DNA of 40,321 bases, taken from positions 1 to 40,321 of IMG/VR virus record IMGVR_UViG_3300024187_000005. One strand, written 5' to 3'. The notes below the pieces were generated by a model. It was not told the DNA's origin. It did no database searches and was given only the letters and a program-made list of their open reading frames with translations. Shown piece after piece: positions 4,162-25,954 of the stretch; position 1 is the stretch's first letter; each line of letters begins with the position of its first letter. The translations under genes were made by a program, and so were the position numbers. This DNA is from a virus.

Positions 4162-4162
4162 C

Positions 4163-7317: not shown

Positions 7318-7619
7318 GACCGCGACTCCCACAGCGCGATCACCCGCTCGCGGGCGGCGTTTGCACGCTCCGGTGTATTGAAGCCGGCTCTGGTTTCTGG
7401 CGGCGTACGCCAGTACGACTCCACGGCACGCATGAGACTCGCGTACTCATCCAGCGCCGCGCAGAACTCCGCCTTGCGCTGCTCCGCGTCGCGTGCGGCG
7501 GCGGCGCGTTGTGAGGCCAGCGGACGCGGGACCGGATGGCACGCGCGAGCCTCGCACATGCAGGACGCGGCTCCGGGGTATAACTGAAACTCGCACTGCT
7601 CGTCGTGCTCGGGGGTCAT
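7314..7619 (-). CDS. Hypothetical 101-aa protein
   Basis: ATG at 7619 overlaps the TGA of the exonuclease gene (ATGA). MTPEHDEQCEFQLYPGAASCMCEARACHP... Confidence 0.7.
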   Translation of the reverse strand: MTPEHDEQCEFQLYPGAASCMCEARACHPVPRPLASQRAAAARDAEQRKAEFCAALDEYASLMRAVESYWRTPPETRAGFNTPERANAARERVIALWESRS

Positions 7620-8164: not shown

Positions 8165-8200
8165 CTGCAACCTCCTATTTCGGGGCGACGGCCGGGACTA

Positions 8201-8389
8201 CTACTCGAACTGAATCGTGCAACGCCCCGCAGCCTTACCGTGCAGAATGTACGTGCCGATGATCACGGAGTCTCCGGGGGAAAGGTCAAAGTCGTCAACG
8301 CTCTGCGCCACTTCCAAGAATGCGTCGCCGCTGTCCTCGTTCCAACGAATCAGCAGGCGCTTAGGCAATTCCTTCTTCTTCACAGTCAT
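8201..8389 (-). CDS. Hypothetical 62-aa protein
   Basis: ATG at 8389 preceded by GGAGG. MTVKKKELPKRLLIRWNEDSGDAFLEVAQSVDDFDL... Confidence 0.7.
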   Translation of the reverse strand: MTVKKKELPKRLLIRWNEDSGDAFLEVAQSVDDFDLSPGDSVIIGTYILHGKAAGRCTIQFE

Positions 8390-8467
8390 TACGGACCTCC
8401 GTTCGATCTGAGCGGCCGGGCGCGTCCCCGTCCAGGTTCACGCCCGTACATGCGACGCTCTGACACA

Positions 8468-8662
8468 TCACTCAACTCCTCCGAACAGGTCCAGAGCCGC
8501 ACCGGGCTGTGGCGCGGGCGGCTCCGGATCCTTCTCGTACTCCGTGCGTATCAGATAACCCTGCTCGTCGCGCTCGCCCAGCGTATCGAAGTCGCATGCA
8601 AAGGACCGCATCCAGTCCTTGTGCGTGTGGCCGCGCCGCTTGCAGACGAGCGGGTAGCTCAC
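8468..8662 (-). CDS. Hypothetical 64-aa protein
   Basis: ATG at 8662 overlaps the upstream TGA (ATGA). MSYPLVCKRRGHTHKDWMRSFACDFDTLGERDEQGYLIRTEYEKD... Confidence 0.7.
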   Translation of the reverse strand: MSYPLVCKRRGHTHKDWMRSFACDFDTLGERDEQGYLIRTEYEKDPEPPAPQPGAALDLFGGVE

Positions 8663-9758: not shown

Positions 9759-10604
9759 CTACGCAACCTCCTGATCCGCTTCGGCCATCTCGGCCGCAAG
9801 CGCGTCGGTGATCGTTCCCTTGACGATGTCGGGGAAGGCTCCGGGCCACTTCCCGGACGACTCGCACTCGTCCAAGAGCGCGAAAAGTCGCTCGCATTCC
9901 ATGTCACCAGCGATCAGCGCGGCCTCGTCCATCGCGTAGCAGGCAACGTCGAACGGCTCGACGTTCTCCACCGCCACGATCAGCACGTGGTTGACCGTGC
10001 GCCCGAGCTGGCGCAGCCCCGCGCGGTACATCGCGAGCTGCCGGTAGTAGCCGAGCCGCGTGATGGCGAAGGGTGAGAAGTTCTTGAGCGAGCGCGTCGT
10101 CTTGAGGTCGGCCAGCACGCCCTCGCCCAACATGTCCGCACGCCCGCGGCAGGCACGTCCATCGCGGTCCCACCGGATCGTCAACTCGCGCTCGGGTGCC
10201 TTGTCGAGCAGCTTGGCCGCGTGCGGATTCCCGCGCACCGCCGCCGCCATCGCCCGCACTTGGAACGCCGTGTCGCCCTTGAGCACGATGCGCCCGGACG
10301 TTTCCATCTCGGCCACGGCTTCGCGGTACGCCTTGGTCGCGCGCGGCCGGGAGGAGTCGATCCCGTCCACGCACGGCTCGTCGCAGTAGGTCGCCTCGAA
10401 CAGGTCGGGCTCGAGCACTGCCATGTGCACCGCGGTGCCGAGCGCCATCGCGTCCGAGTCGGGACGCGTGCGCGAGTCCATCATGTAGCGGAAATAGAGC
10501 GGGGAAGTGGCGAGCCATCCCAACTCCGTCGAGCCGATTGCCGCCATGGAGAGATAGCGGTCCATCGGCACGTGCTTGTGCAGGCCAACGGGGAGCGTGC
10601 CCAT
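9759..10604 (-). CDS. PD-(D/E)XK family exonuclease (RecE/Cas4-like)
   Basis: ATG at 10604 preceded by GGAGGTG. Motifs GTAVHMAVLEPDLF, RADMLGEGVLADLKTT (D...D-x-K) and GYYRQLAMY. The upstream 357 nt of ORF 9759..10961 is Arg/Ser/Ala-rich shadow. Confidence 0.85.
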   Translation of the reverse strand: MGTLPVGLHKHVPMDRYLSMAAIGSTELGWLATSPLYFRYMMDSRTRPDSDAMALGTAVHMAVLEPDLFEATYCDEPCVDGIDSSRPRATKAYREAVAEMETSGRIVLKGDTAFQVRAMAAAVRGNPHAAKLLDKAPERELTIRWDRDGRACRGRADMLGEGVLADLKTTRSLKNFSPFAITRLGYYRQLAMYRAGLRQLGRTVNHVLIVAVENVEPFDVACYAMDEAALIAGDMECERLFALLDECESSGKWPGAFPDIVKGTITDALAAEMAEADQEVA

Positions 10605-10687
10605 CAGTCCCACCTCCACGCGATCGCGAGGATCACCCCCACAAACAGCAGCCAGTCGAGCAGGTGCAGCAGGCGCGCGCGGGTCAT
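10604..10687 (-). CDS. 27-aa hydrophobic micropeptide (not in the supplied ORF track)
   Basis: My own translation: ATG ACC CGC GCG CGC CTG CTG CAC CTG CTC GAC TGG CTG CTG TTT GTG GGG GTG ATC CTC GCG ATC GCG TGG AGG TGG GAC TGA = MTRARLLHLLDWLLFVGVILAIAWRWD. The ATG overlaps the upstream TGA (ATGA) and the TGA shares its A with the downstream ATG (TGATG). Confidence 0.5.
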   Translation of the reverse strand: MTRARLLHLLDWLLFVGVILAIAWRWD

Positions 10688-11061
10688 GGCTTTCTCCGCG
10701 CAAAACGCCGGCCGACCTTCTTAGCCCACTTCTCGCACATATCGAGATGCCCACGCTGGGCGTGTCCGCGCGTGTTGTAGCCTGCGAAGTCCATCTCGCA
10801 GCCAGCAATCTCCGGCATGCCACACAGGCATTCTGGCTCCGTGCATGGCTTGCCGGCCTTGAACACCATCGTCTCGTAGAGGCGCTCCAAGCCGATCGTG
10901 TGAGGCTTGCCGTCGTGATCGTGTGGCGGGTGATAGTCGCCGACCGTAGACACGAGCACATCGCCGACGAGCGTAGCGAGATGGAACCTGCAATCGCTGC
11001 CGACGATCAGGTGTCCGGCCGACCCAAACCAGCGCCATTCGTCCTTCGGGATCGCGCTCAC
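10684..11061 (-). CDS. Hypothetical 125-aa protein (His/Cys-rich)
   Basis: GTG at 11061 preceded by GGGGAGGTGG and overlapping the upstream TGA. VSAIPKDEWRWFGSAGHLIVGSDCRFHLATLVGD...CTEPECLCGMPE... Confidence 0.75.
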   Translation of the reverse strand: MSAIPKDEWRWFGSAGHLIVGSDCRFHLATLVGDVLVSTVGDYHPPHDHDGKPHTIGLERLYETMVFKAGKPCTEPECLCGMPEIAGCEMDFAGYNTRGHAQRGHLDMCEKWAKKVGRRFARRKP

Positions 11062-12454: not shown

Positions 12455-12565
12455 ATGGATGGACTCGCCCAAGCCTTTGTCTGGCTCGACAGCCTGCCCG
12501 CCTGGGCGTGGCTCGCAGCCATCGTCGTCGCGGTAGGCGTCCTGTGCGTCAGGTGGCGGCGATGA
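12455..12565 (+). CDS. 36-aa membrane protein, translationally coupled to the methyltransferase
   Basis: ATG at 12455 after GGAGGG plus 5 nt. MDGLAQAFVWLDSLPAWAWLAAIVVAVGVLCVRWRR. Its TGA overlaps the methyltransferase ATG (ATGA). Confidence 0.65.
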   Translation: MDGLAQAFVWLDSLPAWAWLAAIVVAVGVLCVRWRR

Positions 12566-13350
12566 AGCCCTACTACCAGGACGACGCGGTCACGATCTAC
12601 CACGGGGACTGCTCCGAGGTCCTCGGCGACGCGTTGCCGAAGGCCGATCTTGTGTTCACGTCCCCGCCTTACAACCTCGGCACCACCACTGGCGGGGGGT
12701 TCCCTTCCATCGGGCACTACGCCCGCGGCGCCGCTCTGGCGGACCGCGGCGGTGCCGGCAAGTCGTGGGGCAAGTGGTCCGGTGGCTCGCTCGCGAACGG
12801 CTACGGAGTCCATTCGGACGCGATGCCTCAGTCCGACTACGAGGCGTGGCAGCGCGGCGTTCTCGCGCGACTCTGGGCCCAGCTATCGGACGTCGGGGCG
12901 ATCTTCTACAACCACAAGCCTCGCGTTCAGGCTGGAGAGGCGTGGTTGCCGCTGTGTCTGAATCCTGGCCTGCCTCTGCGTCAGATCGTCACGTGGGCGC
13001 GCGCTGGCGGCATGAACTACGCGCCAACGCATTACGTCCCGACCTACGAGTGGGTGCTGATCTTCGCGAAGGAGCGGTTTCGACTCAGAGACAAGTCGGC
13101 CTCGGGGCTCGGAGACGTGTGGCGCATTACTCAGGAGTCGCAGATCGACCACCCCGCGCCATTCCCGTACGAGCTTGCTGCACGTGCTATCGCCACGACG
13201 ACCGCGGCCGAGGTCCTTGATCCCTTCATGGGCTCCGGCACCACGTTGGTCGCGGCCAAGAACCTCGGCCGTCGCGCCATCGGGATCGAGATCGAGGAAC
13301 GCTACTGCGAGATCGCCGCACGCCGGCTCGCGCAGGAGGTGCTGCTGTGA
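12562..13350 (+). CDS. Orphan beta-class DNA methyltransferase (N4-cytosine or N6-adenine)
   Basis: Motif IV DLVFTSPPYNLG is near the N-terminus and motif I LDPFMGSGTTLVAA near the C-terminus. No adjacent restriction enzyme. Confidence 0.9.
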   Translation: MKPYYQDDAVTIYHGDCSEVLGDALPKADLVFTSPPYNLGTTTGGGFPSIGHYARGAALADRGGAGKSWGKWSGGSLANGYGVHSDAMPQSDYEAWQRGVLARLWAQLSDVGAIFYNHKPRVQAGEAWLPLCLNPGLPLRQIVTWARAGGMNYAPTHYVPTYEWVLIFAKERFRLRDKSASGLGDVWRITQESQIDHPAPFPYELAARAIATTTAAEVLDPFMGSGTTLVAAKNLGRRAIGIEIEERYCEIAARRLAQEVLL

Positions 13351-14042
13351 GCCGCCCGCCGTGGTTCCCGCTACACGTGGCCGACTACGACAACGCCACA
13401 GCCGAACTCACACTTGAGCAGGACGGGCTGTACTCACGGATGCTGCGGCGCGCGTGGTCCAGCTCGGACGACGGGGCGTCGCTTCCGGCTGACACCGTGA
13501 AGCTATGCCGCGTCCTAGGAATCGCCCGCCTGCCCAAGGGTGGCGCCGAGGTTATCGATCGATTCTGGAAGCGCGTTGGCGATCGCATCGTCAACCGTCG
13601 CCTCCTGGCCGAAGCCGATCGTGCCCACGAGCGGTCACGTAAGGCAGGCGAATCCGGGCGACGTTCAGCCGACGCTCGCAGGAAGATTCGCACCCTCGCC
13701 GAGTCAACGAACGTTGGAACGAACGTTGGAGCAATCGTACCAACGATCGTTGGAACGAACGTCCAACGAAGGCACCAACGCGAAGCCAACTACTCACAGG
13801 TACAAGAATCTACACCCCTCCCTCCCTCCACTCCCGAGCTAACTCCAGCCACGCGCGCGGGCGAGGCACCGGCGCAGTGCCAGGACGCCCCCACCGCCCC
13901 GGACCACCCCGGCGGGAGGGAGGGAGTCGCAGCAGGAACGACCCCCAACGGCAACGGCCCGGCCGTGCCGGTATCCGCCGCCGAGCGCGCTCGCCATGCG
14001 CTCGAATACGAACTCGCCAGGGCCAGGAGGGCCGTGTCGTGA
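13347..14042 (+). CDS. DUF1376 (YdaU-like) replication-associated protein
   Basis: GTG at 13347 (GTGA overlap). N-terminus PPWFPLHVADYDNATAELTLEQDGLYSRMLRRAW....LPAD matches the DUF1376 signature ([FW]P..(I/V).D(Y/W)...T..L(S/T)..E.G.Y.R(L/M)L). The middle holds the TNVGTNVG..VGTNV repeat, encoded by the iteron cluster. Confidence 0.8.
   Translation: MSRPPWFPLHVADYDNATAELTLEQDGLYSRMLRRAWSSSDDGASLPADTVKLCRVLGIARLPKGGAEVIDRFWKRVGDRIVNRRLLAEADRAHERSRKAGESGRRSADARRKIRTLAESTNVGTNVGAIVPTIVGTNVQRRHQREANYSQVQESTPLPPSTPELTPATRAGEAPAQCQDAPTAPDHPGGREGVAAGTTPNGNGPAVPVSAAERARHALEYELARARRAVS
13704..13790. repeat. Iteron/palindrome cluster (candidate replication origin) inside the DUF1376 gene
   Basis: CGTTGG at 13712, 13724 and 13748. 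CCAACG at 13740, 13763 and 13775. Tandem AACGAACGTTGG x2 (13706..13729). Perfect 14-bp palindrome CCAACGATCGTTGG (13740..13753). Confidence 0.55.
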
Positions 14043-14608
14043 TCTTCGCTGAATCGGACCTGATCGAACTCGAAGGCAAGCATCCGAAGCTCGACGTAAG
14101 GCGTTGTGCCGCAGACGTTGAGCGGTGGGCGCAGACCCATCTGGTGCACAATCCGCTGGCGCTGTGCGCCGCTTGGCTGGCCAAGAATCCGCGGCGCTAC
14201 CCCCGCAGCGAAAAGCCGCCGGCCGTGACGTGGATGCGCCACGCCGATGGATCGCCGCTCACGGAATCCGAGCGCCGGAACCTCGACGCCTACCGGGTCG
14301 AGCGCGGTGAAATCCCGCCGCCCACTGTCGTCGAGGAACGCTCCACGCCGAGCTACGCCGCTTTCCGTCTGGGGGTGATTGCGGAGGTTTTGGAGTCGCA
14401 TCTCACCCCCGCCGCGGTGGCCGATCGGCTCGCCCAGCACGGCGAGAAATTCGCGCTGGAGCGGAGTTCGCTCGGGCCCGAAATCGTGTTCGAGATCGGC
14501 TCGCAGAATCACGCCGCGAGCTGGCTTGATCTGCGCGATCCGCCACCGCTGCCGCCTGAGGCCGAGCCGGGATTCGTGGCCGTCCAACCGCAGGAATCCG
14601 CATGGTAG
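14039..14608 (+). CDS. Hypothetical 189-aa protein
   Basis: GTG at 14039 overlaps the upstream TGA (GTGA). VIFAESDLIELEGKHPKLDVRRCAADVERWAQTHLVHNPLALCAAWL... The antisense ORF 13790..14587 was rejected as shadow. Confidence 0.7.
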   Translation: MIFAESDLIELEGKHPKLDVRRCAADVERWAQTHLVHNPLALCAAWLAKNPRRYPRSEKPPAVTWMRHADGSPLTESERRNLDAYRVERGEIPPPTVVEERSTPSYAAFRLGVIAEVLESHLTPAAVADRLAQHGEKFALERSSLGPEIVFEIGSQNHAASWLDLRDPPPLPPEAEPGFVAVQPQESAW

Positions 14609-14832
14609 CGCACGGGGGCAAGGGGGATAGGGGCAGGCTGGTGCTAACGCGCAAGTTCGGGGAGTCGGTGGAGATATTTGCCGGCGGCGAGCGCATCACG
14701 GTCACGCTCGCTGCGACCGCTCGTGGCGGGTTCAAGCTCATGCTTGAGGCGGCGCGTCACGTGCGGATCGTGCGCAGCGAGCTGCCGGACTGGCGTGAGG
14801 CGGATGCGCCGCTGGCTCAGGAAGGGGCCTAG
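14602..14832 (+). CDS. csrA: CsrA/RsmA-family RNA-binding regulator homolog
   Basis: RLVLTRKFGESVEIFAGGERITVTLAATARGGFKLMLEAARHVRIVRSEL aligns with CsrA ([47 protein letters not shown]), including the LxLTR(K/R)xGE strand and the Arg of the (H/V)R.E(I/L) motif. The ATG at 14602 gives an 11-aa N-terminal extension. An internal GTG/CTG start at LVLTRK is possible. Confidence 0.8.
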   Translation: MVAHGGKGDRGRLVLTRKFGESVEIFAGGERITVTLAATARGGFKLMLEAARHVRIVRSELPDWREADAPLAQEGA

Positions 14833-14880
14833 CGTGTCCGTACAGCCCCGAACGGGCGGCGGTGTGGGAAAACGGACACG
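14833..14880 (+). promoter_or_regulatory. 9-bp inverted repeat immediately after the csrA stop
   Basis: CGTGTCCGT (14833..14841) pairs with ACGGACACG (14872..14880), closing a 30-nt loop. Followed by ccacaGGGAGGcagaATG, the RBS of the next gene. Confidence 0.35.
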
Positions 14881-14922
14881 GGCGGCCCTCGGGCCTGCCA
14901 AAATCGACCACAGGGAGGCAGA

Positions 14923-16299
14923 ATGACGGTCTTGACCGATCCCCGCACGGTAATCACGCCGGCCACGATCGCGCGGCGTCCATACCTGACGCCGTATCTC
15001 GAACCCGGCTTCGGTTCGACGCTCGTGCGCATCTGCGGCGATACGGGCAGCGCGACGGCTCCGTTTATCCCGACGTGGAATATCGACGCGCGGCATCACT
15101 ACTCTAAAGATCAGCCGTGGAACGCCGATGGCACGCTCGTGAAGCTCGAGCAGCGCGGCGGCAAGCCGGGCGACTTCATCGTCGACGGAAGGACGTGGCA
15201 TCCGATCATGGGCGACATTGGCATCTTCGGTCAGTGCTACGAGACGCGCTGGCATCCGCTCCAGCCCAACGTCATGGTCGGCTGGATCAAGTCGGTGGGC
15301 GATGTGGTCGTGTTCAATCCGATCACGAACGTCGAGATTCACCGCGTGCACATCGGCAACACGACGATCAGCCCGATGGGCGAAGGTGCGCTTAGCGAGG
15401 ACGGCAACATGCTCGCGCTGGGCGACACGGCGAGCAATGCGCTCGTGGTCGACATCGCGAACAGTCGCGTAGGACCGCTGACGAAGATCGTCTATCCCGG
15501 TGATCCGGCGTGGACGCTCAACAACCTGACGATGAGTCCGCTATCCACGTCCGCCGGCGGTTACGTCGTGTTCGGTGGCGACAGCGACAAGGGCATGGTG
15601 TGCAGTTACGGCGGTGCCGACCTGGCGCTTGTGATGCCGCGCGCGTTCTCTCTCGCGATGAGCCACGCCGACGTCGGTGTCTCGCCCGCGGGGCGTGAGG
15701 TGTACGTGGGCGGCGCGCGTGCGTACTACGGCTCCGGCACGTTCACGAACAAGGACGGGCGCATCATCTCGATCGACATCGCGACCGGCGCGTTCACGCA
15801 TGTCAGCATGGGCACCAACCAGCTCGGGGCGATCGGCAAGGAGTCGGGTGATCAGCATTGCTCCTGCCGCGGCCCGCGTGGCTGGGTGCTGACCACCTAC
15901 GCCGGCCCGCAGGAGGGCGGCGGGCAATTCTGCATGGAACTCGTCGCGTGGAAGCTGGACGGCTCGCGCGAGTGCGTGCGGTTCGGTGTGACGCGCACCA
16001 ACGAGGCGGGCATCTACCGCGCCGAGGCGCATGGTGTGATGCGGCGCGACGGCAAGGCGGTGATGTTCGCATCGAACAACCAGTGGGCGACGCCGGGGAT
16101 TTTGGGAGATCCTAACGACATCAAGGCGCACGTGTACGTGCTGGACAGCGTGACGCCGCCGCCGAGTACGCAGGATCGGTTCTACGTCGACCCGGCGTTC
16201 ACCTATCAGCCGCCGGGCGCGGTGTTCGATCACGCCACCGGGCGGATCGTGCCGCTGCCGGAAGTCGCACGTCTGCTCAACACGGCGAAGTGGTCGTGA
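14923..16299 (+). CDS. TolB-like / oligogalacturonate-lyase-like beta-propeller protein, paralog A
   Basis: ATG after GGGAGG. Shares FG.(K/T).(V/T)R(I/V).GDTG, HHYSKDQPWN.D, EAHGV....DG(K/R).VMFASN and D(I/V)KA(H/Y)V with the next gene. Repeated ..DG..(L/V).. blade-like motifs. Confidence 0.8.
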   Translation: MTVLTDPRTVITPATIARRPYLTPYLEPGFGSTLVRICGDTGSATAPFIPTWNIDARHHYSKDQPWNADGTLVKLEQRGGKPGDFIVDGRTWHPIMGDIGIFGQCYETRWHPLQPNVMVGWIKSVGDVVVFNPITNVEIHRVHIGNTTISPMGEGALSEDGNMLALGDTASNALVVDIANSRVGPLTKIVYPGDPAWTLNNLTMSPLSTSAGGYVVFGGDSDKGMVCSYGGADLALVMPRAFSLAMSHADVGVSPAGREVYVGGARAYYGSGTFTNKDGRIISIDIATGAFTHVSMGTNQLGAIGKESGDQHCSCRGPRGWVLTTYAGPQEGGGQFCMELVAWKLDGSRECVRFGVTRTNEAGIYRAEAHGVMRRDGKAVMFASNNQWATPGILGDPNDIKAHVYVLDSVTPPPSTQDRFYVDPAFTYQPPGAVFDHATGRIVPLPEVARLLNTAKWS

Positions 16300-16341
16300 T
16301 GTACAATCCCGCACGGCTCCGAGCCACGAGGAGATAGCCGA

Positions 16342-17961
16342 ATGACTGACACAACGCCGCCGCCGGTTCGCGTTGAACCCATCGTTTCCGGCGTCTCGCT
16401 TATTTCGGGCCCGCAGGTTATTAGCGATCCGATGGCTACGGTTACGGTGGCTGCGGCGCCGCGCCCGGAGTATCTATCCGAACTGCGCCTGACTGGCTTC
16501 GGCACCAAGATCACGCGTGTCACGGGTGACACTGGAACGACGATTCCCTACCTCGGCGGCACGTGGGCCAAGTGTTCGCGGCATCACTACAGCAAGGACC
16601 AGCCGTGGAACGATGACAGTTCGTTGCTGTACCTGATTCAGCGCAAGGCTGCCGACGGCACCAAGGTCCCCGACAACTCGCCTGATCTGATCATCCTGGA
16701 CGGCAGCACCTACACGCCGCTGTTCGGCAACAAGAACACGACGCACAACCTCGACATCCTGTCACGCTGTATCGGCGGTGCCAACGGGGAGTTCCGGTGG
16801 CGTCCGACGCACCCGACGCAGTGCGTGATGTGGAACAGCGCCTCGCAACTTCTCACCGTTGTGGAACTGCTGTCGCAGACGATCGTGTGGCAGGTGCATA
16901 TTCCGCACGCGTGCAACGACAATTCGTTGTCGTCGGCCGCGGTGCCGCGTGGCAGCGAGTCGTTCGGGATGCTGGGCGAGGGCAATCTCTCGTTCGACGG
17001 CCGCTATCTCGTGTTGTGTTCGCATTGGTGGAAGCCGGCGCAACAGGGCATTGTCGACGAGTTCTGTGTTGTGGATCTCGACGCCAAGGTCGTGGGGCCG
17101 ATGAACCAGGTCCCGATGACGGCGGCGCTCGCGGCGACTGGCGACTACGGCGACATCGACTGGGCGTCGATCTCTCCCTCCGGGAAGTACGTTGTCGTGA
17201 AGTTCTCGAGCACGAGCAACCCGGAATACGCGCGATGCTGGAAGGTCAATGCCTCGACGCTGGTGGCGTCGCAGAGTCTGTACGACGCGGGTGATAATCC
17301 GCTGTTCTCGAACGCGCTCGACGTACACGGCTGGCTCGCGACGATGGGTCACGCAGACATGACGACCGATCCATCGCCCGAGGTGTTGACGGGCGAGACG
17401 GACGTTTATGTTGGCAAGTGCAAGGACCCGTCATACTCGAATCATTGCAGTAGCGCCGACTTTGCGGCGCTGGGGCCGATGATTACGCAGGGGCTGGAAA
17501 AGGGTACGCACCATCACGACTCGCTCGGCACGACGGGTCTGTCCGGTGCACATCTCAACGAGCCTCGCCACACGAGCTGCAGGTGCTATAAGGATCCGTT
17601 ACACGCTTTGGTAACGCACTACGTCAACGCATCGAATAAGTTGTCGGATGAGTTGGTGTTTTGGCAGTTGGACAGTAGTGATGCGTTCATATCCAGAATT
17701 GCGACGACGCGCAGCGACGACAGCGTCGGCTTCGTGTGCGAGGCGCATGGCGTTCCGTCTCCTGATGGCAGGAAGGTCATGTTCGCATCCAACTGGCAGT
17801 TGAACGCGAACCCCGCTTATCCCGACAAGTACGACGTCAAGGCGTATGTGGTCGATGTCGACCAGACCGATCTGACGGTCACGGCGGACGAATCGCGCGT
17901 GCCGCAGTTCGGGCCTGATTGGGATCCGCGACTGCCATACGCAAGCTGGTTGAACCAATGA
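16342..17961 (+). CDS. TolB-like / oligogalacturonate-lyase-like beta-propeller protein, paralog B
   Basis: ATG after GAGGAG. Motifs FGTKITRVTGDTG, RHHYSKDQPWNDDSS, SISPSGKYVVVKF, CEAHGVPSPDGRKVMFASNWQ, YDVKAYVVDV. Confidence 0.8.
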   Translation: MTDTTPPPVRVEPIVSGVSLISGPQVISDPMATVTVAAAPRPEYLSELRLTGFGTKITRVTGDTGTTIPYLGGTWAKCSRHHYSKDQPWNDDSSLLYLIQRKAADGTKVPDNSPDLIILDGSTYTPLFGNKNTTHNLDILSRCIGGANGEFRWRPTHPTQCVMWNSASQLLTVVELLSQTIVWQVHIPHACNDNSLSSAAVPRGSESFGMLGEGNLSFDGRYLVLCSHWWKPAQQGIVDEFCVVDLDAKVVGPMNQVPMTAALAATGDYGDIDWASISPSGKYVVVKFSSTSNPEYARCWKVNASTLVASQSLYDAGDNPLFSNALDVHGWLATMGHADMTTDPSPEVLTGETDVYVGKCKDPSYSNHCSSADFAALGPMITQGLEKGTHHHDSLGTTGLSGAHLNEPRHTSCRCYKDPLHALVTHYVNASNKLSDELVFWQLDSSDAFISRIATTRSDDSVGFVCEAHGVPSPDGRKVMFASNWQLNANPAYPDKYDVKAYVVDVDQTDLTVTADESRVPQFGPDWDPRLPYASWLNQ

Positions 17962-18608
17962 GCGAAGAGCACGCCAGCAAACAAGACACGCTCAACAAGA
18001 TTGCGCGCGACCTGTTCGAGTTGCGGCACGATCAACGCTGGGCGATCGACCGGCTGACGACGCTGTCGTCCAATGTGCAGGAGATGGGCTGGGCGCTCAA
18101 GGCGTTGCTCGACTTCGTGTCGAGCGGCGGTGGCATAGGCCACACGACGATTCATGTCACAGCGGTAGAACTCAAACCTGAGGAGAGTCACATGCCACCG
18201 ATCGACCACATGCCATTGCTGCAGCTCCCGTCGTCCACCGTGCGCGCCATGCTGAGCGTGTCGAATCCGCGCAAGGCCGACGGCTCGCGCGTCACCTCCG
18301 TCACGTGGAGTTCGAGCGACGAGTCGCAGGTTTCGCTCGAAGCGATCCCGGACAGCACCGTCAAGGTGCCGGATCCCAACTGGGTCGATCCGGGCGACGG
18401 CTCGAGTGCGCCGCTGGTCGACTTCATCGACACCGACGGGTTGCCCAACAGCGTGTTCGCGACCTACGCCGACACGCCGCTCGACGCGGGCGACGCCACC
18501 GTCACGGTCAAGGCTGCGGGTATGGCGGACTGCGACATCGAGATCAAGTACTCGGACCCCGCGGTCGGCCACTTCGCGATCACGGGCGTTCAGGTGCCGG
18601 AGGCGTAG
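17958..18608 (+). CDS. Hypothetical protein with an Ig-like (Big_2-like) C-terminal region
   Basis: ATG at 17958 overlaps the upstream TGA (ATGA). VTSVTWSSSDESQVSLEAIPDSTVKV...GDATVTVKAAGMADCDIEIKY resembles a bacterial Ig-like domain. Confidence 0.7.
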   Translation: MSEEHASKQDTLNKIARDLFELRHDQRWAIDRLTTLSSNVQEMGWALKALLDFVSSGGGIGHTTIHVTAVELKPEESHMPPIDHMPLLQLPSSTVRAMLSVSNPRKADGSRVTSVTWSSSDESQVSLEAIPDSTVKVPDPNWVDPGDGSSAPLVDFIDTDGLPNSVFATYADTPLDAGDATVTVKAAGMADCDIEIKYSDPAVGHFAITGVQVPEA

Positions 18609-18835: not shown

Positions 18836-18909
18836 AGCGGGGTGGGGAAGCCAGGTGTCCCGCCGGCCTCATAAGCCGGAGATCGCGGGTTCAAATCCCG
18901 CCCCCGTTA
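18836..18909 (+). tRNA. tRNA with CAU anticodon (elongator Met or lysidine-dependent Ile2)
   Basis: Hand-folded cloverleaf. Acceptor AGCGGGG/CCCCGTT (one G-U). U8. D arm GGGA-AGCCAGGTG-TCCC. Anticodon arm CCGGC-CTCATAA-GCCGG. Variable loop AGATC. T arm GCGGG-TTCAAAT-CCCGC. Discriminator A. No encoded CCA. Confidence 0.9.
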
Positions 18910-19011
18910 CATCAGGGCCGGCGTGCGCCGACGTGCGCCGGTCCTAGTAAACTCCGTCGTCGGTGGGCTTCGGTTTCCATGGATAGGGAAGCCTCACAGC
19001 AGGAGCACCAG

Positions 19012-21876: not shown

Positions 21877-22023
21877 ATGCCACTCGACAAGTCCAAGAGC
21901 AAGGCTGCGCGTCAGCGCAACATCGAGACGGAGATCGCAGCGGGCAAGCCACCGAAACAGGCGGTTGCGATCGCGTACGCCGTGCAGCGTCGTAAGCCTA
22001 AGGCGAGCAAGAAAGGCAAGTGA
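21877..22023 (+). CDS. Small basic protein (48 aa)
   Basis: ATG at 21877 after CAGGAGGCTGAG. MPLDKSKSKAARQRNIETEIAAGKPPKQAVAIAYAVQRRKPKASKKGK. Its TGA overlaps the terL GTG. Confidence 0.65.
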   Translation: MPLDKSKSKAARQRNIETEIAAGKPPKQAVAIAYAVQRRKPKASKKGK

Positions 22024-23663
22024 CCGACACCACCGCGCCCTACGCCTACGCCGGAGTCGTGGCGGCGCTGCGGCTGCCTTCCGAGAGCCCGCTCGATTAC
22101 TTCCGGTTCTCCGTGGATCGTCTGCGCGATGCCATGCGCATGTTCGTTGGCGACGATCCTATTGACGAACTGGCGTGCCGCGCTGCGAACAAGGGTGCCA
22201 AGACGTACAACCTCGCGGCCTACGTGCTTGCTTGCCTCCAGAAGCGCCACGAACTGGACGGTGTGCGACTCCCGCAATGGCGCGGGCCGGTAACTGCACT
22301 GTGTCTCGTGCCCGATCACGAACAGCAGAAGCTGAGTACGCAAAAGCATTTTCTGCGGCTGCTTGGGAAGTGGCCGGCGAAGTCCACATGGAAAGGCCAG
22401 GGGATTCTTGGCGAAGTTCGCGTGATGCCGATCAACGGCAATGACGATCTCTCGACGTGGTCGTCAATCACGTTCATGACCGCAAAGAATCCGCAGTCGG
22501 GAGTTGGTGCCCGCGCTGATGTTGTATGGGCTGATGAGCCGCCGCCGGAGATGGTGTGGCGCGAGATCCGCAAGGCGGCGGACGCTGGTAGGCGCATCAT
22601 CCGCCCGCTTGGCTTCACTCCGAGAATCCGCCGCGAGTGGGCGTGGATCCGTGACGAGTACGGCGACACGCCCCGCAACACAACGAAGCGCATTACACAG
22701 GATTGGGCGGAATGCCGTTGGTCGTTGTTCGACAACAAGGCGTTGACGCCCGAAGAAGTCGCCAAGTTGCTCCGCGAGTACAAGCGCGATGGGCTGTTCG
22801 ATGCGCGCGTTTACGGCGACTACGCGAACGAGGCCGGCGAGTGCCCGTTCGATGTGGCGACGCTGAACGCGATGCTCGCCGAGATTGGGGATTACGAGCC
22901 CGAGGTTGTCCAGTGGCGCGTGCCGGTGGAGTCCAACGATGGCGCGGCGCGCGACCGTATCATCCTGCCGGTTGAGGTGTTCTCACATCCTAAGCCGGGC
23001 GCGAGCTACTACTTCCCGATCGACCCCTCGGCGGGAGTGGACGACAGCCGGCACGACCCAGCTGGTATGCACGGGCGCGAGATTGGATCCGGAGATCTCG
23101 CGGTGCGTGTGGTGGGAGCGATCCCGCCCTATTCGATGGGCGTCCTCGCGGCCAGCCTCGCACGCCAATACAACAACGGTGTGGTTCAGCCGGAGGTCAA
23201 TGATGGCTTCGGCATGACTGTGTTGACGGGGATTCGCGACTCGCGCTACGGCAACATCGGATACGAGATGCGGGAATTGACGCCGGGCCAGTGGTCCAAG
23301 GAGTACGGCTTTCGCACGACGCCTAAGACGCGTCCCGGCATGATGGGTGCCATTCAAGCATGGATTGAGTCATGGCGGTCGGGTGTGAGGTACGCCAACT
23401 GCCCATCGCGGGCGATCATTGAGTGTCTGTTGGACTGCATTGTGGATGAGTCCGGCAAGCCAATCGCCGCTCCGGGTTTACACGATGAGGACCTGATTCT
23501 TTGGGGCCAGGGCCTGCGGCGCGCGGTAACCCGCTCCGGGCGGCACATTCCGGACATCGCGCCTAAGCCCAAGACGCCGGACGATGAGATCATGGCGCTC
23601 GTGATGGGGCACGACGAGGACGAGCGCCAGGTGCCGCGCTGGCGGGAGCGGCCGCGGATCTAG
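22020..23663 (+). CDS. terL: Terminase large subunit
   Basis: 547 aa. Deviant Walker A AANKGAKT, Walker B ADVVWADEPP, nuclease-domain motif YYFPIDPSAGVDDS. Lies upstream of the portal. Confidence 0.8.
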   Translation: MTDTTAPYAYAGVVAALRLPSESPLDYFRFSVDRLRDAMRMFVGDDPIDELACRAANKGAKTYNLAAYVLACLQKRHELDGVRLPQWRGPVTALCLVPDHEQQKLSTQKHFLRLLGKWPAKSTWKGQGILGEVRVMPINGNDDLSTWSSITFMTAKNPQSGVGARADVVWADEPPPEMVWREIRKAADAGRRIIRPLGFTPRIRREWAWIRDEYGDTPRNTTKRITQDWAECRWSLFDNKALTPEEVAKLLREYKRDGLFDARVYGDYANEAGECPFDVATLNAMLAEIGDYEPEVVQWRVPVESNDGAARDRIILPVEVFSHPKPGASYYFPIDPSAGVDDSRHDPAGMHGREIGSGDLAVRVVGAIPPYSMGVLAASLARQYNNGVVQPEVNDGFGMTVLTGIRDSRYGNIGYEMRELTPGQWSKEYGFRTTPKTRPGMMGAIQAWIESWRSGVRYANCPSRAIIECLLDCIVDESGKPIAAPGLHDEDLILWGQGLRRAVTRSGRHIPDIAPKPKTPDDEIMALVMGHDEDERQVPRWRERPRI

Positions 23664-23965: not shown

Positions 23966-25954
23966 GTGCGCGACATCCACCAGCGGCACTCCCCGTTCTG
24001 GACGCCCCTCCATCTAGCTATGGACGAGGAGGAGGCGTTCAACGACGGCGATCGCTACGCCGACGACGCGGGCCCCTTCAATCGCGACCGGCGCTCGATC
24101 CAGATCCGTGGCATGGAGACGAGCGATACCGTCCTCCACATCGCCGCCGACTCCACCAGCAAGCCCCGCAACGTAGAAACCCGCCCGATCGATAGCGCCG
24201 ACGATCCCGAGGCCGGCGAGGCCGCGGCGAGCCTCGTACAGAACGAGTTGGCGAATCCCTGGAAGGGCTTCGACGACTACTACGAGGAGGCCATCATCTC
24301 GGCGCGCGAGAAGCGGTTGGGCGTGGTGTGGATGGACTGGGACCCCGACTACGCGCCCTATGGCGAGATCTTCTACAGCTACGGCGACCCGCGGCGTTTC
24401 ATGTGGGACGAGGCGTACGATCCGCATCATCCTCTGTGCGGGTGGCTCCTGCGCGAGAAGCGCATGGACGTCGACGCCGCGCGCGAGTGCTACGACGTCC
24501 AGTGGCTCGAGCCCGACCGCGGATTCCAGAGTGGCTTGAGCAATGGCGGCATGCGGCCCTTGCTGGACTACCAGGGCCAGCCGATGCGGCCGACGCTTCT
24601 GGACGACAACAAGGTCACGCTGTGGGAGATGTGGTGGAAGAACGACCGCACCACGAAGCCCCCCAAGCAGACGCAGAACGTCCTGAAGCCGGATCAGCAG
24701 TACATGGCGTGCGCGGGTGGCTGCGGCTACCGGACGCCACCCGGCAAGGGCCAGCCGGAGCTGGCGCCGCAGGCGTGCCCGACGTGCGGCGGCGACCTGC
24801 ACAGGATCGACGCGCTCGACGTGGACGAGACATCGCTTGCGTACGCGCGCGGCCGCCGCCTGACGGTGATCGCCCCGTTCTGCTCGTCGCCCGACGATGA
24901 TCCGGTGCGGGACGGCTCATGGCCGATCCCCAAGGCGCGCAGCTTCCCCGGCCTGTTTATTACCTGCCACGTCAAGCCCGGTCGCCCGGTCGGTGCCTCC
25001 GACACCACGCGGCTGTGGGACCAGCAGATCGCGAGCGACACGCTGCGCACCACGGCGATTCAGCGCGTGCTCGAGCACCGGAACTACTGGGAGCTACCGC
25101 GTACTGGAATCGTGGACTACCGCAATCGCCGGTTCGAGTTCCGCGATGACCAGTTCAACGTGATGTACCGCGACAACAGTCACGAGATGGCACCGTCGGA
25201 GGTGATCCAGCACAACGGCACCGGCCTCGATCCCAACTTCGCCGCAGTGTTCAACATCACGCAAGCCTCGCTGACGATGTATCGCGGCGTCACAGATCTC
25301 GGGCTCACGCCGGACTCGAGCAAGGACATCCCGGTCGGCACGATCGACACGATGGTCCAGCAAGGCAACATCCAGGTCGCGTACTTCAACCGCCGTAAGA
25401 ACCGCGCACTATCCAAGTTCTACGGCGTGGTATGGGACTACGTGCGCGAGACCTACACGCCCGAGCGCATGTCGCGGCTCAACCTGGACGGTGCCGACAT
25501 CCTGGCGCGTCTCAACCCCGACGATCTGCCGAACTTCGATTTCGTGATCGAGGACTCGGCACCGTTCACCGGCGTCGAGAAGGAGCGCAGCGACGCGGCC
25601 AAGGAGCTGGTCGCGATGGCGGTGCAGCAACCCGACACGTGGGACTTGTACGCCGAACTGACGGGCGCACCCGCTTCGATTATCCGCAAGATCGAGAAGC
25701 GGATGGCCAAGCTCAAGGGCGAGGCGGACGCGCAGGGCGGTCCCAAGCCCGATCCCACGATGGTGGCGACGGGTGTCGCGAATTTGAAGAAAGCGGGTGC
25801 GCTGGTGACGCCCGAGCAGGAGCAGGCGGCGCTGACCGGAATGGGTCTGCCGCCCGCGCAGCAAACGAACGGACTCCCGCCGCAGTTGGCGGGTGCAGGT
25901 AACGGCCCCGGCATGGTGCCGGGTGCCATGAGCCCCAACGGGGCGGGGATGTGA
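23966..25954 (+). CDS. Portal protein (start uncertain: GTG 23966, or in-frame CTG 23930 six nt after AGGAGG)
   Basis: 662 aa, sited between terL and the scaffold/capsid genes. A perfect AGGAGG at 23918..23923 precedes an in-frame CTG at 23930. There is no good SD before 23966. Confidence 0.75.
   Translation: MRDIHQRHSPFWTPLHLAMDEEEAFNDGDRYADDAGPFNRDRRSIQIRGMETSDTVLHIAADSTSKPRNVETRPIDSADDPEAGEAAASLVQNELANPWKGFDDYYEEAIISAREKRLGVVWMDWDPDYAPYGEIFYSYGDPRRFMWDEAYDPHHPLCGWLLREKRMDVDAARECYDVQWLEPDRGFQSGLSNGGMRPLLDYQGQPMRPTLLDDNKVTLWEMWWKNDRTTKPPKQTQNVLKPDQQYMACAGGCGYRTPPGKGQPELAPQACPTCGGDLHRIDALDVDETSLAYARGRRLTVIAPFCSSPDDDPVRDGSWPIPKARSFPGLFITCHVKPGRPVGASDTTRLWDQQIASDTLRTTAIQRVLEHRNYWELPRTGIVDYRNRRFEFRDDQFNVMYRDNSHEMAPSEVIQHNGTGLDPNFAAVFNITQASLTMYRGVTDLGLTPDSSKDIPVGTIDTMVQQGNIQVAYFNRRKNRALSKFYGVVWDYVRETYTPERMSRLNLDGADILARLNPDDLPNFDFVIEDSAPFTGVEKERSDAAKELVAMAVQQPDTWDLYAELTGAPASIIRKIEKRMAKLKGEADAQGGPKPDPTMVATGVANLKKAGALVTPEQEQAALTGMGLPPAQQTNGLPPQLAGAGNGPGMVPGAMSPNGAGM

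Follow-up and report, generated by a model that had tools for sequence, protein, structure and literature searches.

Two adjacent genes in a 40,321-nucleotide stretch of viral DNA (IMG/VR record IMGVR_UViG_3300024187_000005, positions 1 to 40,321; hereafter the window) encode predicted seven-bladed beta-propellers, PropA and PropB, which are phage-borne, leaderless members of a large, uncharacterized and mostly secreted bacterial propeller family. We tentatively propose, with a little less than half of our confidence, that both are soluble, non-virion and probably metal-dependent glycan-cleaving enzymes that are released at lysis.

A paralogous gene pair between replication and packaging genes

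The pair and its surroundings comprise the following features:

14602..14832, + strand: phage csrA-like gene directly 5' of PropA (PHROG CsrA-like regulator; PF02599 on the public gene call)
14913..14918, + strand: Shine-Dalgarno site of PropA, GGGAGG, strong by sequence
14923..16299, + strand: PropA, 458 aa, leaderless seven-bladed PD40-type beta-propeller (residues ~30-407) with a short C-terminal tail
16328..16333, + strand: Shine-Dalgarno site of PropB, GAGGAG, strong by sequence
16342..17961, + strand: PropB, 539 aa, paralogous leaderless propeller with a disordered N-terminus of 25-40 aa and several loop insertions
17958..18608, + strand: ORF of 216 aa 3' of PropB, from the ATG at 17958, with an ATGA overlap with PropB that suggests translational coupling
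23966-25954: P22-like portal, 3' of the propeller pair
31724-34930: beta-helix tailspike, 3' of the propeller pair, with pectate-lyase-like beta-helix domains

An earlier note on this DNA, made from the letters alone, had singled out both ORFs, and they proved to be real in coordinates and size: the ORF check and the public gene calls on the source contig (identical to PropA and PropB) agree, both genes have Shine-Dalgarno sites, and GC3 values of 0.85 for PropA and 0.78 for PropB within a genome of 65% GC argue that both are coding. The two proteins are 29% identical over ~490 columns (BLASTP, E=9e-44), which is far above chance and marks them, by sequence, as the true paralogues that the note had taken them to be. 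The four motifs it quoted, FG.(K/T).(V/T)R..GDTG, HHYSKDQPWN.D, EAHGV....DG(K/R).VMFASN and D(I/V)KA(H/Y)V, are each found in both proteins and are the best-conserved columns across the wider family. Its claim that neither protein has a signal peptide was likewise upheld, as a Kyte-Doolittle scan of the first 50 residues detected no N-terminal hydrophobic leader in PropA or PropB (maximal 12-residue means of 0.75 and 1.46, respectively); such a leader, with a mean of at least 1.6, is present in 101 of 135 complete family members.

The 5' neighbors of the pair are a DNA methylase, a DUF1376 primosomal-like gene and CsrA (PF02599), and with the portal lying 3' and the tailspike ~14 kb 3' of the propeller genes, the pair is located outside the virion module, as had been described. 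Directly ahead of the portal is a 547-aa ORF that is terminase-like in size and position, for which a homologue search detected no homologue. The 216-aa ORF had no match in Pfam, PHROG, NCBIfam or PADLOC, and its similarity to the Ig-like genes 3' of the propeller on contigs L001 and L002 was not significant; a functional link between this ORF and the propellers is putative.

Predicted fold and resemblance to PL22 lyases

The AlphaFold2 models are confident for PropA (pLDDT 87.4, pTM 0.85) and PropB (pLDDT 81.8, pTM 0.84), and DSSP assigns seven four-stranded blades to each, which confirms, at the level of the model, that both are seven-bladed beta-propellers, as their blade motifs had suggested. 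The TolB/PD40 type of these blades was also recovered: the propellers share with TolB the blade motif S/P-D-G-x-x-hydrophobic, PropB residues 473-484 match PD40 (PF07676) weakly (E=0.028, under the Pfam cut-off), and 18 of 59 family members match the same model (best E=3.8e-6), with which PL22 proteins are themselves annotated.

The earlier note had also proposed comparing predicted structures with PL22 and TolB propellers. We searched both models against 350,542 PDB chains and found that the best chain was a PL22 oligogalacturonate lyase for each paralogue independently, while TolB ranked far under PL22. The top match of PropA was 3PE7 from Yersinia enterocolitica (E=6.5e-10; TM 0.54 query-normalized and 0.64 target-normalized), which leads generic WD40 proteins by only ~3-fold. 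For PropB, 3C5M from Vibrio parahaemolyticus took ranks 1 and 2 (E=7e-11, target-normalized TM 0.62), with the next match ~200-fold behind (E=1.5e-8). The PL22 superpositions of the two proteins had RMSD values of 7-9 A and query-normalized TM scores of 0.46-0.54.

The resemblance to PL22 that the note had suggested thus stood for the closest structure and for the C-terminal pattern, but not for family membership. No model in Pfam, NCBIfam, PHROG or PADLOC covers PropA or PropB. The PL22 model PF14583 left both unmatched in a Pfam scan at E<=10 and matched 1 of 59 family members (E=0.078), the family profile retrieved no PL22 chain from the PDB at E<=10, and full-length hhalign of the family (150 domains) against PL22 (122 sequences) gave a probability of 14.6% (pairwise E=0.0019). 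We therefore rejected PL22 membership, and homology between the two families is, by these profile comparisons, statistically not established. Blade 7 is the only propeller segment that aligns with PL22 in blade-wise hhalign (score 26.8, pairwise E=2e-6). Here E368-A-H370...D376...FASN falls over PL22 H353-P-H355...D361...FTSD, in line with the C-terminal likeness that the note had suggested (H......DG...F(T/A)S), and PL22 Q350 falls on Y365, which is not a ligand-type residue.

We take the Mn2+ site of PL22 to be formed by H287, Q350, H353 and H355, with H242 presumably acting as Bronsted base and R217 as a stabilizing residue (3PE7 numbering; the residue types were checked). These roles are reportedly those given by Abbott et al. 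in 2010, in JBC 285:39029. By hhalign, H242, R217, H287 and Q350 have no sequence-alignable counterparts in the propeller family, and blade-wise alignment of blades 5 and 6 with PL22 gave no meaningful profile alignment. By position alone, the invariant H312 on the blade 6 inner strand is a candidate for H287, and H248/D250 (blade 5) and R316/R353 are conserved candidates for the roles of H242 and R217. Like PL22, PropA and PropB are PD40-type propellers of seven blades without a signal peptide, and collinearity with PL22 extends over the closing strand at the N-terminus and the first blade (hhalign 22-178 vs 11-144). Unlike PL22, the family has Glu in place of H353 and Tyr in place of Q350, and PropA and PropB exceed the PL22 enzymes in length by 80-160 residues and contain many loop insertions. 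In addition, the wider family consists of secreted, multidomain proteins, whereas PL22 enzymes have a single domain, are located in the cytoplasm and belong to pectin catabolism; no pectin-catabolic genes occur in the phage or cellular propeller neighborhoods examined.

A large, mostly secreted family with one phage clade

At E<=1e-30 the family comprises 719 clusters (50% identity), spread over Eisenbacteria, PVC phyla, Bacteroidota, Gemmatimonadota and others, which are polysaccharide-degrading phyla. Among 38 multidomain relatives, we found fusions to CBM4_9 (7), CBM96 (4), beta-helix/NosD (3), the RGI-lyase beta-sheet domain (3) and Sde0182_C (2), many PKD/Ig/fn3 modules and, in 3-4 of the 38, purple-acid-phosphatase modules (Pur_ac_phosph_N, Metallophos, Metallophos_C). 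DNRLRE and T9SS sorting domains are also present in relatives, and the tails of two members (P0015 and P0020) appear dockerin-like on our reading of the alignment. The family thus shows the modular pattern of secreted CAZymes, whereas PropA and PropB are catalytic-type modules on their own, with neither leader nor CBM. The secretion of the cellular relatives and their fusion to CBM4_9, CBM96/DNRLRE, beta-helix and RGI-lyase modules favor the carbohydrate-active role that had been suggested from the sequence.

Cellular neighborhoods of the propeller have no recurring partner and show a weak glycan-related pattern, which was assessed without a background control. In Bizionia arctica, for example, the propeller gene adjoins a GT4/GT4/Wzy/MurJ-Wzx/AsnB cluster, and genes for Metallophos/purple acid phosphatase (PAP) and type I phosphodiesterase recur among the cellular neighbors.

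The leaderless clusters, ~20 in number, form one clade (18 of 20 terminals), and all its members with an inspected contig lie on phage-like contigs. PropA and PropB belong to two different subclades: that of PropA has 7 members, all leaderless, in which P0002-P0005 are at 48-53% identity, and PropB is placed in a sister subclade with P0006-P0008 and P0079. In 7 phage-type contexts, which cover at least 3 portal types, the neighbors of the propeller are primosomal, RusA, endonuclease, terminase or portal genes; it never lies within or next to tail genes, nor next to lysis genes. On L001 the propeller and the structural genes are on opposite strands, and on phage contig L002 a PAP-like gene is located 1.4 kb 5' of it. 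No transporter or sugar-catabolic genes accompany the propeller in any phage context examined. The family is rare in viruses, with 3 propeller loci in IMG/VR and no match in GenBank phages or PHROG.

Conserved residues and a candidate active site

The family domains are only 25-50% identical to one another, yet ~20 polar residues are conserved in at least 85% of 150 of them. These residues are retained in both paralogues, with PropB departing at few conserved columns (F464 for Y365, and L420/H421 for G320/W321). According to DSSP on the model, they are on the predicted inner strands of 6 of the 7 blades: R57/H58/Y60 (blade 1), R109/W110 (blade 2), E154 (blade 3), H248/D250 (blade 5), H312/S314/R316 (blade 6) and E368/H370 (blade 7). 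From these strand positions, the conserved residues would cluster in the central channel, as would the blade 1 motif that runs from R57 to N. The elements concerned, together with the C-terminal tail, are:

15091..15123, + strand: PropA R57-H58-H59-Y60-S-K-D-Q-P-W66-N, blade 1 inner strand; family signature and candidate active-site element
15664..15672, + strand: PropA H248-A-D250, blade 5 inner strand (E244-253); candidate catalytic or metal-binding pair
15856..15870, + strand: PropA H312-C-S314-C-R316, blade 6 inner strand (E310-314); candidate catalytic or metal-binding residues
16024..16080, + strand: PropA E368-A-H370...D376-G...F-A-S384-N, blade 7; aligns with PL22 H353/H355
16153..16296, + strand: PropA C-terminal tail, residues 411-458, after a PPP linker (by alignment; pLDDT 50-70)

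Across the 150 family domains, conservation reaches 89% for R57, 90% for H58, 95% for Y60 and 97% for W66. H248 is conserved in 145 members and D250 in 141, and on blade 6 the counts are 146 for H312, 146 for S314 and 134 for R316. Column 368 holds E in 131/150 and Q in 10/150, and column 370 holds H in 117/150 and Q in 25/150. The C-terminal tail is common to the leaderless members P0002-P0005, P0009, P0064, P0068, P0082, P0116 and P0160, in which the profile ends at position 470 or beyond, and by alignment it is not recognizable in PropB or in most other family members.

Proposed role and alternative explanations

Since the family is normally secreted and fused to sugar-binding modules, PropA and PropB are probably soluble enzymes that cut host surface polysaccharide. 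The conserved inner-strand residues would lie along the central channel and make up a catalytic pocket, which probably binds a divalent metal through E368, H370 and a His of blade 5 or 6, as in PL22. The glycan would then be cleaved, our leading guess being beta-elimination of a uronate-containing polysaccharide and the alternative being metal-assisted hydrolysis. Both proteins would be made in the cytoplasm from an operon that runs from replication to packaging genes and, judging by gene position, would be absent from virions, and they may reach the host's capsule, EPS or O-antigen-like polymer at lysis. There, they could help the progeny by removing matrix or debris that bears receptors, as a complement to the beta-helix tailspike, whose pectate-lyase-like domains make a polysaccharide the probable receptor of the phage. 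The two paralogues probably differ in substrate specificity, because they belong to two old subclades and have differing loop insertions.

The chemistry could be different within the same enzyme family: rather than beta-elimination, the propellers might perform metal-dependent hydrolysis of a phosphodiester or phosphoglycan (teichoic-acid-like or phosphorylated EPS) or of a glycosidic bond. We consider this fairly unlikely. The fused purple-acid-phosphatase modules, the recurrence of Metallophos/PAP and phosphodiesterase genes near cellular propellers and the PAP-like gene on L002 are consistent with hydrolysis, and a His/Asp/Glu-rich conserved set fits a hydrolytic metal centre no less than a lyase. 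However, the PAP links concern a minority of members, the closest solved structures are lyases, and the conserved Arg, His and Tyr match the neutralizer, base and acid set of PL24, PL25 and PL42 (PMC8377490). A less probable possibility concerns the site of action. Expression ahead of the packaging genes would keep the proteins in the cytoplasm up to lysis, and an intracellular target fits this equally well. Like PL22 Ogl, they might act on cytoplasmic oligosaccharides or on lipid-linked or nucleotide-sugar-derived precursors, and thereby halt the synthesis of capsule, EPS or O-antigen (leading to receptor removal, superinfection exclusion or easier release) or scavenge carbon. Such action would agree with the loss of the leader in PropA, PropB and nearly the whole phage clade while the cellular relatives are exported, with the grouping of the genes with early/middle functions beside the global regulator csrA, and with the cytoplasmic location of Ogl, the nearest structural relative, as indicated by the title of Abbott et al., 2010 and by Shevchik et al., 1999. 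Against this, an enzyme released at lysis would need to lose its leader as well, the ancestral family acts extracellularly on polymers (CBMs, T9SS tags, dockerin-like tails), and the phage contexts lack the transporter and sugar-catabolic genes mentioned above.

Two further explanations seem improbable to us. PropA and PropB might be non-catalytic, either as lectin-like glycan binders or as mimics or binders of host proteins for host takeover (for example, in TolB/Tol-Pal or PD40 interaction networks). At the sequence level they show only generic PD40, WD40 and THOC3 blade similarity, their top structural matches other than PL22 are mostly scaffolds, and many cellular fusions are adhesin-type PKD/Ig/cadherin repeats. 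Yet the inner strands of six blades carry His, Asp, Glu, Arg and Ser residues that hardly vary across ~150 members of very low overall identity, a pattern typical of a catalytic centre and not of a binding surface; the CBM fusions imply a catalytic propeller that is brought to its substrate; and TolB, which lacks this inner-strand His/Asp/Glu/Arg set, falls far behind in the fold searches. TolB also carries an extra N-terminal alpha/beta domain. Comparably improbable is a place in the virion as accessory receptor-binding or depolymerase subunits docked on the tail, for instance by way of the C-terminal tail of PropA or the protein encoded by the coupled ORF. The ~45-aa tail specific to the PropA subclade might serve for docking, PropB is translationally coupled to a small ORF, and the best viral structural match, a domain inside the 1172-aa protein A0A8E5NQ64 (E=1.8e-16, query-normalized TM 0.66), could be fibre-like. 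But PropB and its subclade have no such tail, and the propeller avoids tail genes in all 7 phage contexts. By alignment and model, neither protein has an N-terminal anchor or trimerization domain, as the propeller begins around residue 20-30, with its closing strand formed by the N-terminus. With no PHROG tail family matching PropA or PropB and the genes far from the tail module, we rejected the class of virion-borne tailspikes and fibres.

Comparison with other carbohydrate-active systems

The proposed release of free enzymes shares its role, the breakdown of capsule, EPS or O-antigen of the host, with phage polysaccharide depolymerases, which are of tailspike or tail-fibre type and occasionally soluble. 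In the classical form, such a depolymerase is a trimeric beta-helix (or six-bladed sialidase) protein that has an N-terminal virion anchor and is encoded in the tail module, whereas PropA and PropB are anchorless propellers, which we assume are probably monomeric, with genes between replication and packaging functions. The general seven-bladed architecture recurs in the PL24/PL25 ulvan lyases and in the PL42 rhamnose-glucuronate lyase/GH145. PL24, PL25 and PL42 use an Arg neutralizer with His/Tyr as base and acid in a central pocket (PMC8377490), and in the propeller family, too, the inner strands hold conserved Arg, His and Tyr. However, these lyases are metal-independent BNR-type propellers, and PL24, PL25 and PL42/GH145 are absent from the top 50 structural matches of both proteins and showed no detected sequence similarity to them.

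It is possible, though doubtful, that the propellers represent a new widespread carbohydrate-active family, a distant structural relative of PL22 with a remodeled Glu/His metal site, which phages have captured as free depolymerases. If true, at least 700 clusters at 50% identity would make up a family without a Pfam, NCBIfam or PHROG model, of which one lineage passed into tailed phages, where it shed the export signal and diversified. Early/middle-gene depolymerases freed at lysis would be a strategy separate from tailspikes, and the phage studied here would use two such enzymes that differ in specificity. Viral hypothetical proteins with TM >0.4 to PL22 and without sequence-based CAZyme annotation, among unannotated PL22-like and GH130-like propeller clusters obtained by comparing folds, are described in passages of a preprint (bioRxiv 10.64898/2026.08.04.742344). 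Those passages make no mention of this propeller family, its secreted bacterial relatives, a leaderless phage clade or paired paralogues; as they present it, the survey is based on fold only and focuses on giant-virus GH130-like proteins.

Genomic position of the two propeller genes

The window, a 40.3-kb phage contig with 65% GC, has an identical counterpart in an ENA assembly whose start point is shifted, as expected of a complete circular or terminally redundant genome. Two of its open reading frames, PropA (14923-16299, 458 aa) and PropB (16342-17961, 539 aa), lie exactly where the earlier note had placed them, with identical public gene calls, and both show the bias typical of true genes in this genome (GC3 of 0.85 and 0.78, respectively) and a good Shine-Dalgarno sequence (GGGAGG before PropA and GAGGAG before PropB). 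The claim that they are paralogues is borne out by BLASTP (E=9e-44, 29% identity, collinear end to end); both contain the four motifs singled out in the earlier note, which are the best-conserved columns of the wider family, and neither has an N-terminal hydrophobic leader, again as claimed. The features of the window that bear on the two genes are as follows.

9759-10961, minus strand: exonuclease VIII-like gene, part of a leftward block with recombination functions
12508-13350, rightward block: DNA methylase
13347-14042, rightward block: DUF1376 primosomal-like gene, after the DNA methylase
between the DUF1376 and CsrA genes, rightward block: 189-aa ORF
14602-14832, rightward block: CsrA (PF02599), immediately upstream of PropA
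17958-18608, rightward block: 216-aa ORF, coupled to PropB by an ATGA overlap
18836-18910: tRNA-Met (anticodon CAT), between the propeller block and the late genes
between the tRNA-Met and the terminase-sized ORF, rightward block: several unknown ORFs
22020-23663: terminase-sized 547-aa ORF, directly upstream of the portal
23966-25954, rightward block: P22-like portal, followed by head and tail genes
31724-34930, rightward block: DUF2793/pectate-lyase-like beta-helix tailspike
34930-38226: 1098-aa protein, right after the beta-helix tailspike
4118-4582: endolysin, which follows the structural genes on a circular reading of the contig

We rejected membership of the propeller genes in the lysis cassette because the endolysin is far away. 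The 547-aa ORF had no detectable homologue in Pfam, PHROG or PDB sequence searches and may be a highly divergent terminase. Neither Pfam nor PHROG has a match for the 1098-aa protein, possibly another receptor-binding protein, which would parallel the two putatively soluble propellers. The tRNA-Met is the sole segment of the 14-19 kb region with DNA similarity to GenBank phage records.

A propeller family with secreted bacterial relatives

Direct family assignment failed: Pfam returned only sub-threshold matches (IFT140 and PD40), PHROGs, NCBIfam and PADLOC had no match for PropA or PropB, and together with PDB sequence searches these libraries yielded only sub-threshold PD40, WD40 and IFT140 blades. 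Only 20 clusters came up in a word-indexed search of 5.8 billion proteins; an exhaustive profile search of 1.84 billion representatives revealed a far larger family, with 5,616 matches at E<=1e-3, of which 2,351 reached E<=1e-10 and 719 reached E<=1e-30. Many of these proteins have several domains, with lengths of up to 2,137 aa. The AlphaFold2 models (PropA: pLDDT 87.4, pTM 0.85; PropB: pLDDT 81.8, pTM 0.84) are almost all-beta, with seven four-stranded blades according to DSSP. In the model, the N-terminal strand (PropA residues 32-36; residue numbers refer to PropA unless stated) closes the last blade, and the C-terminal ~45 residues of PropA form an extra segment of lower model confidence. 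We are highly confident in this family and fold assignment.

A hydrophobic leader is present in 101 of the 135 family representatives with complete N-termini; T9SS sorting domains occur on other members, and the sequences of some suggest dockerin-like tails. The fusion partners of the propeller in 38 multidomain members include PKD (9), CBM4_9 (7), fn3 (6), Big_7 (5), He_PIG Ig (5) and CBM96 (4) domains, purple-acid-phosphatase modules (3-4), beta-helix/NosD domains (3), a rhamnogalacturonan-lyase beta-sheet domain (3), Sde0182_C (2) and Ig_Rha78A_N (2); the relative P0021 carries a DNRLRE domain. Among 185,579 species genomes, relatives were found nearly all in MAGs, from Eisenbacteria (several copies per genome), Verrucomicrobiota, Planctomycetota, Kiritimatiellae, Lentisphaeria, Gemmatimonadota, Acidobacteriota, Anaerolineales, Myxococcota and Bacteroidota, and no cellular relative exceeded 34% identity to PropA, leaving no candidate host or donor of the phage propellers in this set.

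Bizionia arctica (NZ_BMFQ01000002.1, 807-9401) is the sole cultured organism represented in the 80 listed genome loci, and in it a T9SS-tagged member divergently adjoins a surface-polysaccharide biosynthesis cluster with two GT4 genes, a Wzy-type polymerase (Wzy_C), a MurJ/Wzx-type flippase and an asparagine-synthase-like gene. Dedicated polymer-trimming glycanases (AlgL, PslG, PelA and BcsZ) occur at such clusters. A conserved cellular operon was rejected, as the +/-2 neighbours of 35 cellular loci included no dominant partner (GT4 4, sulfatase 3, ThuA 3 and Metallophos 3, as raw counts without background control). The cellular neighbours show only a weak glycan-related pattern (GT4, sulfatases, ThuA, DegT, BNR, beta-helix and 3-keto-disaccharide hydrolase), to which Metallophos/PAP is added. 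Since the neighbours have neither a conserved partner nor a background control, it is chiefly the domain fusions that link the family to carbohydrates.

A rare leaderless phage lineage

About 20 family representatives are stand-alone propellers without a leader. In a rough neighbour-joining tree, built without bootstraps, the smallest clade that unites PropA with PropB comprises 20 terminals, and 18 of these are leaderless. PropA falls in an all-leaderless subclade of 7 with the family proteins P0002-P0005 (48-53% identity), in which the members checked carry a C-terminal tail; PropB groups with P0006-P0008 and P0079 (38-48% identity) in the sister subclade, which has 12-13 members. The two genes thus belong to different, old phage-borne branches, and the pair did not arise by recent tandem duplication. 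Where the contigs of leaderless members could be inspected, they were phage-like in every case.

L001: P22-type portal; propeller on the strand opposite the structural genes
L002 and L003: ERF, RNase T and many small early-type genes
L005: lambda-type portal; propeller two genes upstream of the portal
L006 and L007: SU10-type portal; terminase-sized gene downstream
L011: DUF1376 gene, 151-aa ORF, then propeller, in the same order as in the window
L093: short, unannotated contig of small ORFs

A PHROG scan of 35 neighbours identified primosomal, RusA-type resolvase, endonuclease, large terminase, portal and head-tail-joining families, and none of the 25 PHROG families listed for these neighbours was a tail, fibre or lysis family. 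The phage propeller lineage is rare: there was no match in 50,697 GenBank phage records, three loci among 2.9 million IMG/VR contigs and two phage-type loci in a scan of JGI metagenomes. The best viral structural match is a domain within the 1172-aa viral protein A0A8E5NQ64 (E=1.8e-16), which indicates that the propeller domain can also occur in large viral proteins.

Several of these contigs carry further genes of note. A DegT/DnrJ/EryC1 aminotransferase and a GT2 glycosyltransferase lie on the contigs of two PropA-type propellers (L006 5380-7027 and L007 5140-6787), between the terminase-sized gene and the SU10-type portal, so that two sugar-modifying genes stand inside the packaging/structural block. 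L002 encodes a purple-acid-phosphatase-like Metallophos protein (7288-8634) 1.4 kb upstream of its PropB-type propeller. On a 44.7-kb viral contig (L010, IMGVR_UViG_3300031576_000106), positions 5666-6109 match PropA residues 9-135 only, at 32% identity, and may represent a truncated, frameshifted or chimeric relative.

Comparison with PL22 and a candidate active site

In a Foldseek search of 350,542 PDB chains, a PL22 oligogalacturonate lyase ranked first for PropA and PropB independently. PropA matched 3PE7 with E=6.5e-10 and a TM score of 0.54 (query-normalised) or 0.64 (target-normalised), only ~3-fold ahead of generic WD40 propellers, and PropB matched 3C5M with E=7e-11 and a target-normalised TM score of 0.62, ~200-fold ahead of the runner-up. 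The resemblance to PL22 proposed in the earlier note holds for the fold and for an alignable last blade, but not for sequence membership, as PF14583 matched only 1 of 59 members (E=0.078). The family profile retrieved no PL22 chain from the PDB even at E<=10, and homology to PL22 was not established by profile-profile comparison, with a probability of 1.8% against a two-sequence template and of 14.6% when 150 family domains were compared by hhalign with 122 PL22 sequences, a shallow profile because all 122 are at least 67% identical to 3PE7. This alignment was confident over the N-terminal strand and first blades only, and full-length collinearity needs a relaxed alignment.

Blade by blade, only the last blade (blade 7) aligned well (pairwise E=2e-6), placing A367-E368-A369-H370...D376...F-A-S-N of the family onto T352-H353-P354-H355...D361...F-T-S-D of PL22. 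The 3PE7 sequence has the expected residue types at R217, H242, H287, Q350, H353 and H355, the published catalytic positions, with H353 and H355 among four PL22 metal ligands; their catalytic roles are reportedly those described by Abbott et al. in 2010. The E368 position is E or Q in the family; at the H370 position, 117 of 150 members have H and 25 have Q. By the blade-7 alignment, E368 and H370, conserved and able to act as ligands, therefore correspond to two of the four metal-binding residues of PL22. The counterpart of Q350, in contrast, is a Tyr, and H287, H242 and R217 could not be placed in the family by sequence.

Across 150 domains with a mutual identity of only 25-50%, the residues conserved in at least 85% include R36, R57, H58, Y60, W66, R109, W110, S158, D160, D177, S205, H248, D250, H312, S314, R316, E339, D346, R353, Y365, E368, D376 and S384. 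The conserved polar residues are kept in both PropA and PropB; PropB departs at a few conserved columns, with F464 for Y365 and L420/H421 for G320/W321. DSSP places a conserved group at the innermost strand (the first) of six blades, either within that strand or immediately ahead of it: blade 1 (R57-Y60), 2 (R109-W110), 3 (E154), 5 (H248-D250), 6 (H312-R316) and 7 (E368-H370). Judged from these modelled strand positions, the placement would be the classic signature of a propeller active site in the central channel. The predicted layout resembles that of PL22, in which consecutive blades supply H242, H287 and H353/H355. The conserved Arg and His/Tyr residues also match the neutraliser, base and acid toolkit of the PL24, PL25 and PL42 propeller lyases (PMC8377490).

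Proposed function and alternatives

We tentatively propose that PropA and PropB each consist of just the catalytic-type module of a family whose bacterial members are exported to act on extracellular glycans, and that the export signal was lost in the phage lineage. The genes would be transcribed with the replication-to-packaging operon, and the proteins, having no virion anchor, would build up in the cytoplasm and be freed at lysis. They would then degrade the host capsule, EPS or an O-antigen-like polymer, freeing progeny from matrix and debris, and the two diverged copies, with their different loop insertions, could cover two linkages or polymers. Because the phage has a beta-helix tailspike, the target polymer type is probably also the receptor. 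We give this full model of leaderless glycan-cleaving enzymes released at lysis slightly less than an even chance. As to its parts, we lean slightly towards carbohydrate-active enzymes, given the fold similarity and the bacterial domain fusions, and find it fairly probable that both proteins are soluble and non-virion; that they are lyases specifically seems less likely than not. We assume that they are probably monomeric.

A rival to lyase action is hydrolase or phosphoesterase chemistry, which the putative His/Asp/Glu metal centre would suit equally, and for which the purple-acid-phosphatase fusions (3-4 of 38 multidomain relatives) and the recurrence of Metallophos/PAP among cellular neighbours also speak. 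The target might be intracellular, as for the PL22 oligogalacturonate lyase Ogl, or the propellers might be non-catalytic binders. They might also be virion accessory proteins that dock via the C-terminal tail of PropA (residues 411-458, 16153-16296), ~45 aa after a PPP linker with the consensus FD..TGRIVPL.EV..LLN. This tail, which could be a docking or oligomerisation element, is common to the leaderless proteins P0002-P0005, P0009, P0064, P0068, P0082, P0116 and P0160, and is not recognisable in PropB or most other family members.

On the glycan-cleaving reading, the pair would be classed with propeller-type glycan-cleaving enzymes and phage depolymerases, deployed unusually as non-structural proteins. 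The observation is solid and the family unstudied; the case for a function depends on the similarity of fold and on the fusion partners in bacteria. According to its accessible text, a 2026 preprint (10.64898/2026.08.04.742344) relied on comparing folds only and reported a likeness of unannotated viral clusters to GH130 or PL22 propellers, and the general idea of viral PL22-like propellers is thus already published. Neither that text nor further literature searches yielded anything on the family of PropA and PropB, on its secreted relatives in bacteria, on the phage clade without leaders or on the pairing of two paralogues. If the proteins are active in glycan cleavage, a large uncharacterised family of environmental bacteria, which has no curated model in any library searched, would gain a function and qualify as a new CAZy family. 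Depolymerase searches centred on beta-helix tail proteins would then overlook anchorless propellers outside the virion module, and small leaderless propellers, assumed to be monomeric, would lend themselves to use as reagents that attack capsules or the biofilm matrix. With two copies that diverged long ago, this 40-kb genome also offers a natural experiment on substrate specificity. If the proteins are inactive or structural, the finding shrinks to two unusual accessory proteins.

Flanking elements

Control of the PropA leader by CsrA was not supported (fold z=-0.49), and the window holds no excess of ANGGA motifs (208 observed versus 235 expected). The 90-nt leader (14833-14922) holds two ANGGA sites, a weakly unusual count, one of them inside the Shine-Dalgarno site. 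Promoter and terminator scans around the propeller genes gave nothing above shuffled expectation.

In L001 (11398-12039) and L002 (11368-11793), a small Ig-like gene (He_PIG or Flg_new_2) comes next after the propeller and overlaps its stop, and these domain types are also fused to the propeller in cellular proteins. A conserved two-gene module of propeller and Ig-like gene was rejected for the window, where no domain could be detected in the PropB-coupled ORF, nor any similarity between it and the L001 and L002 genes (E>=0.3). When 285 collected proteins and the six-frame translations of L001-L011 were searched, a segment of this ORF, VPDPNWVDPGDGSSAPL (18372-18420), recurred only as one nearly identical stretch, IPDPSWIDPHDGSKAPL, which forms residues 184-200 of P0008, an insertion in propeller blade 3 of this protein from the phage-like contig L011.
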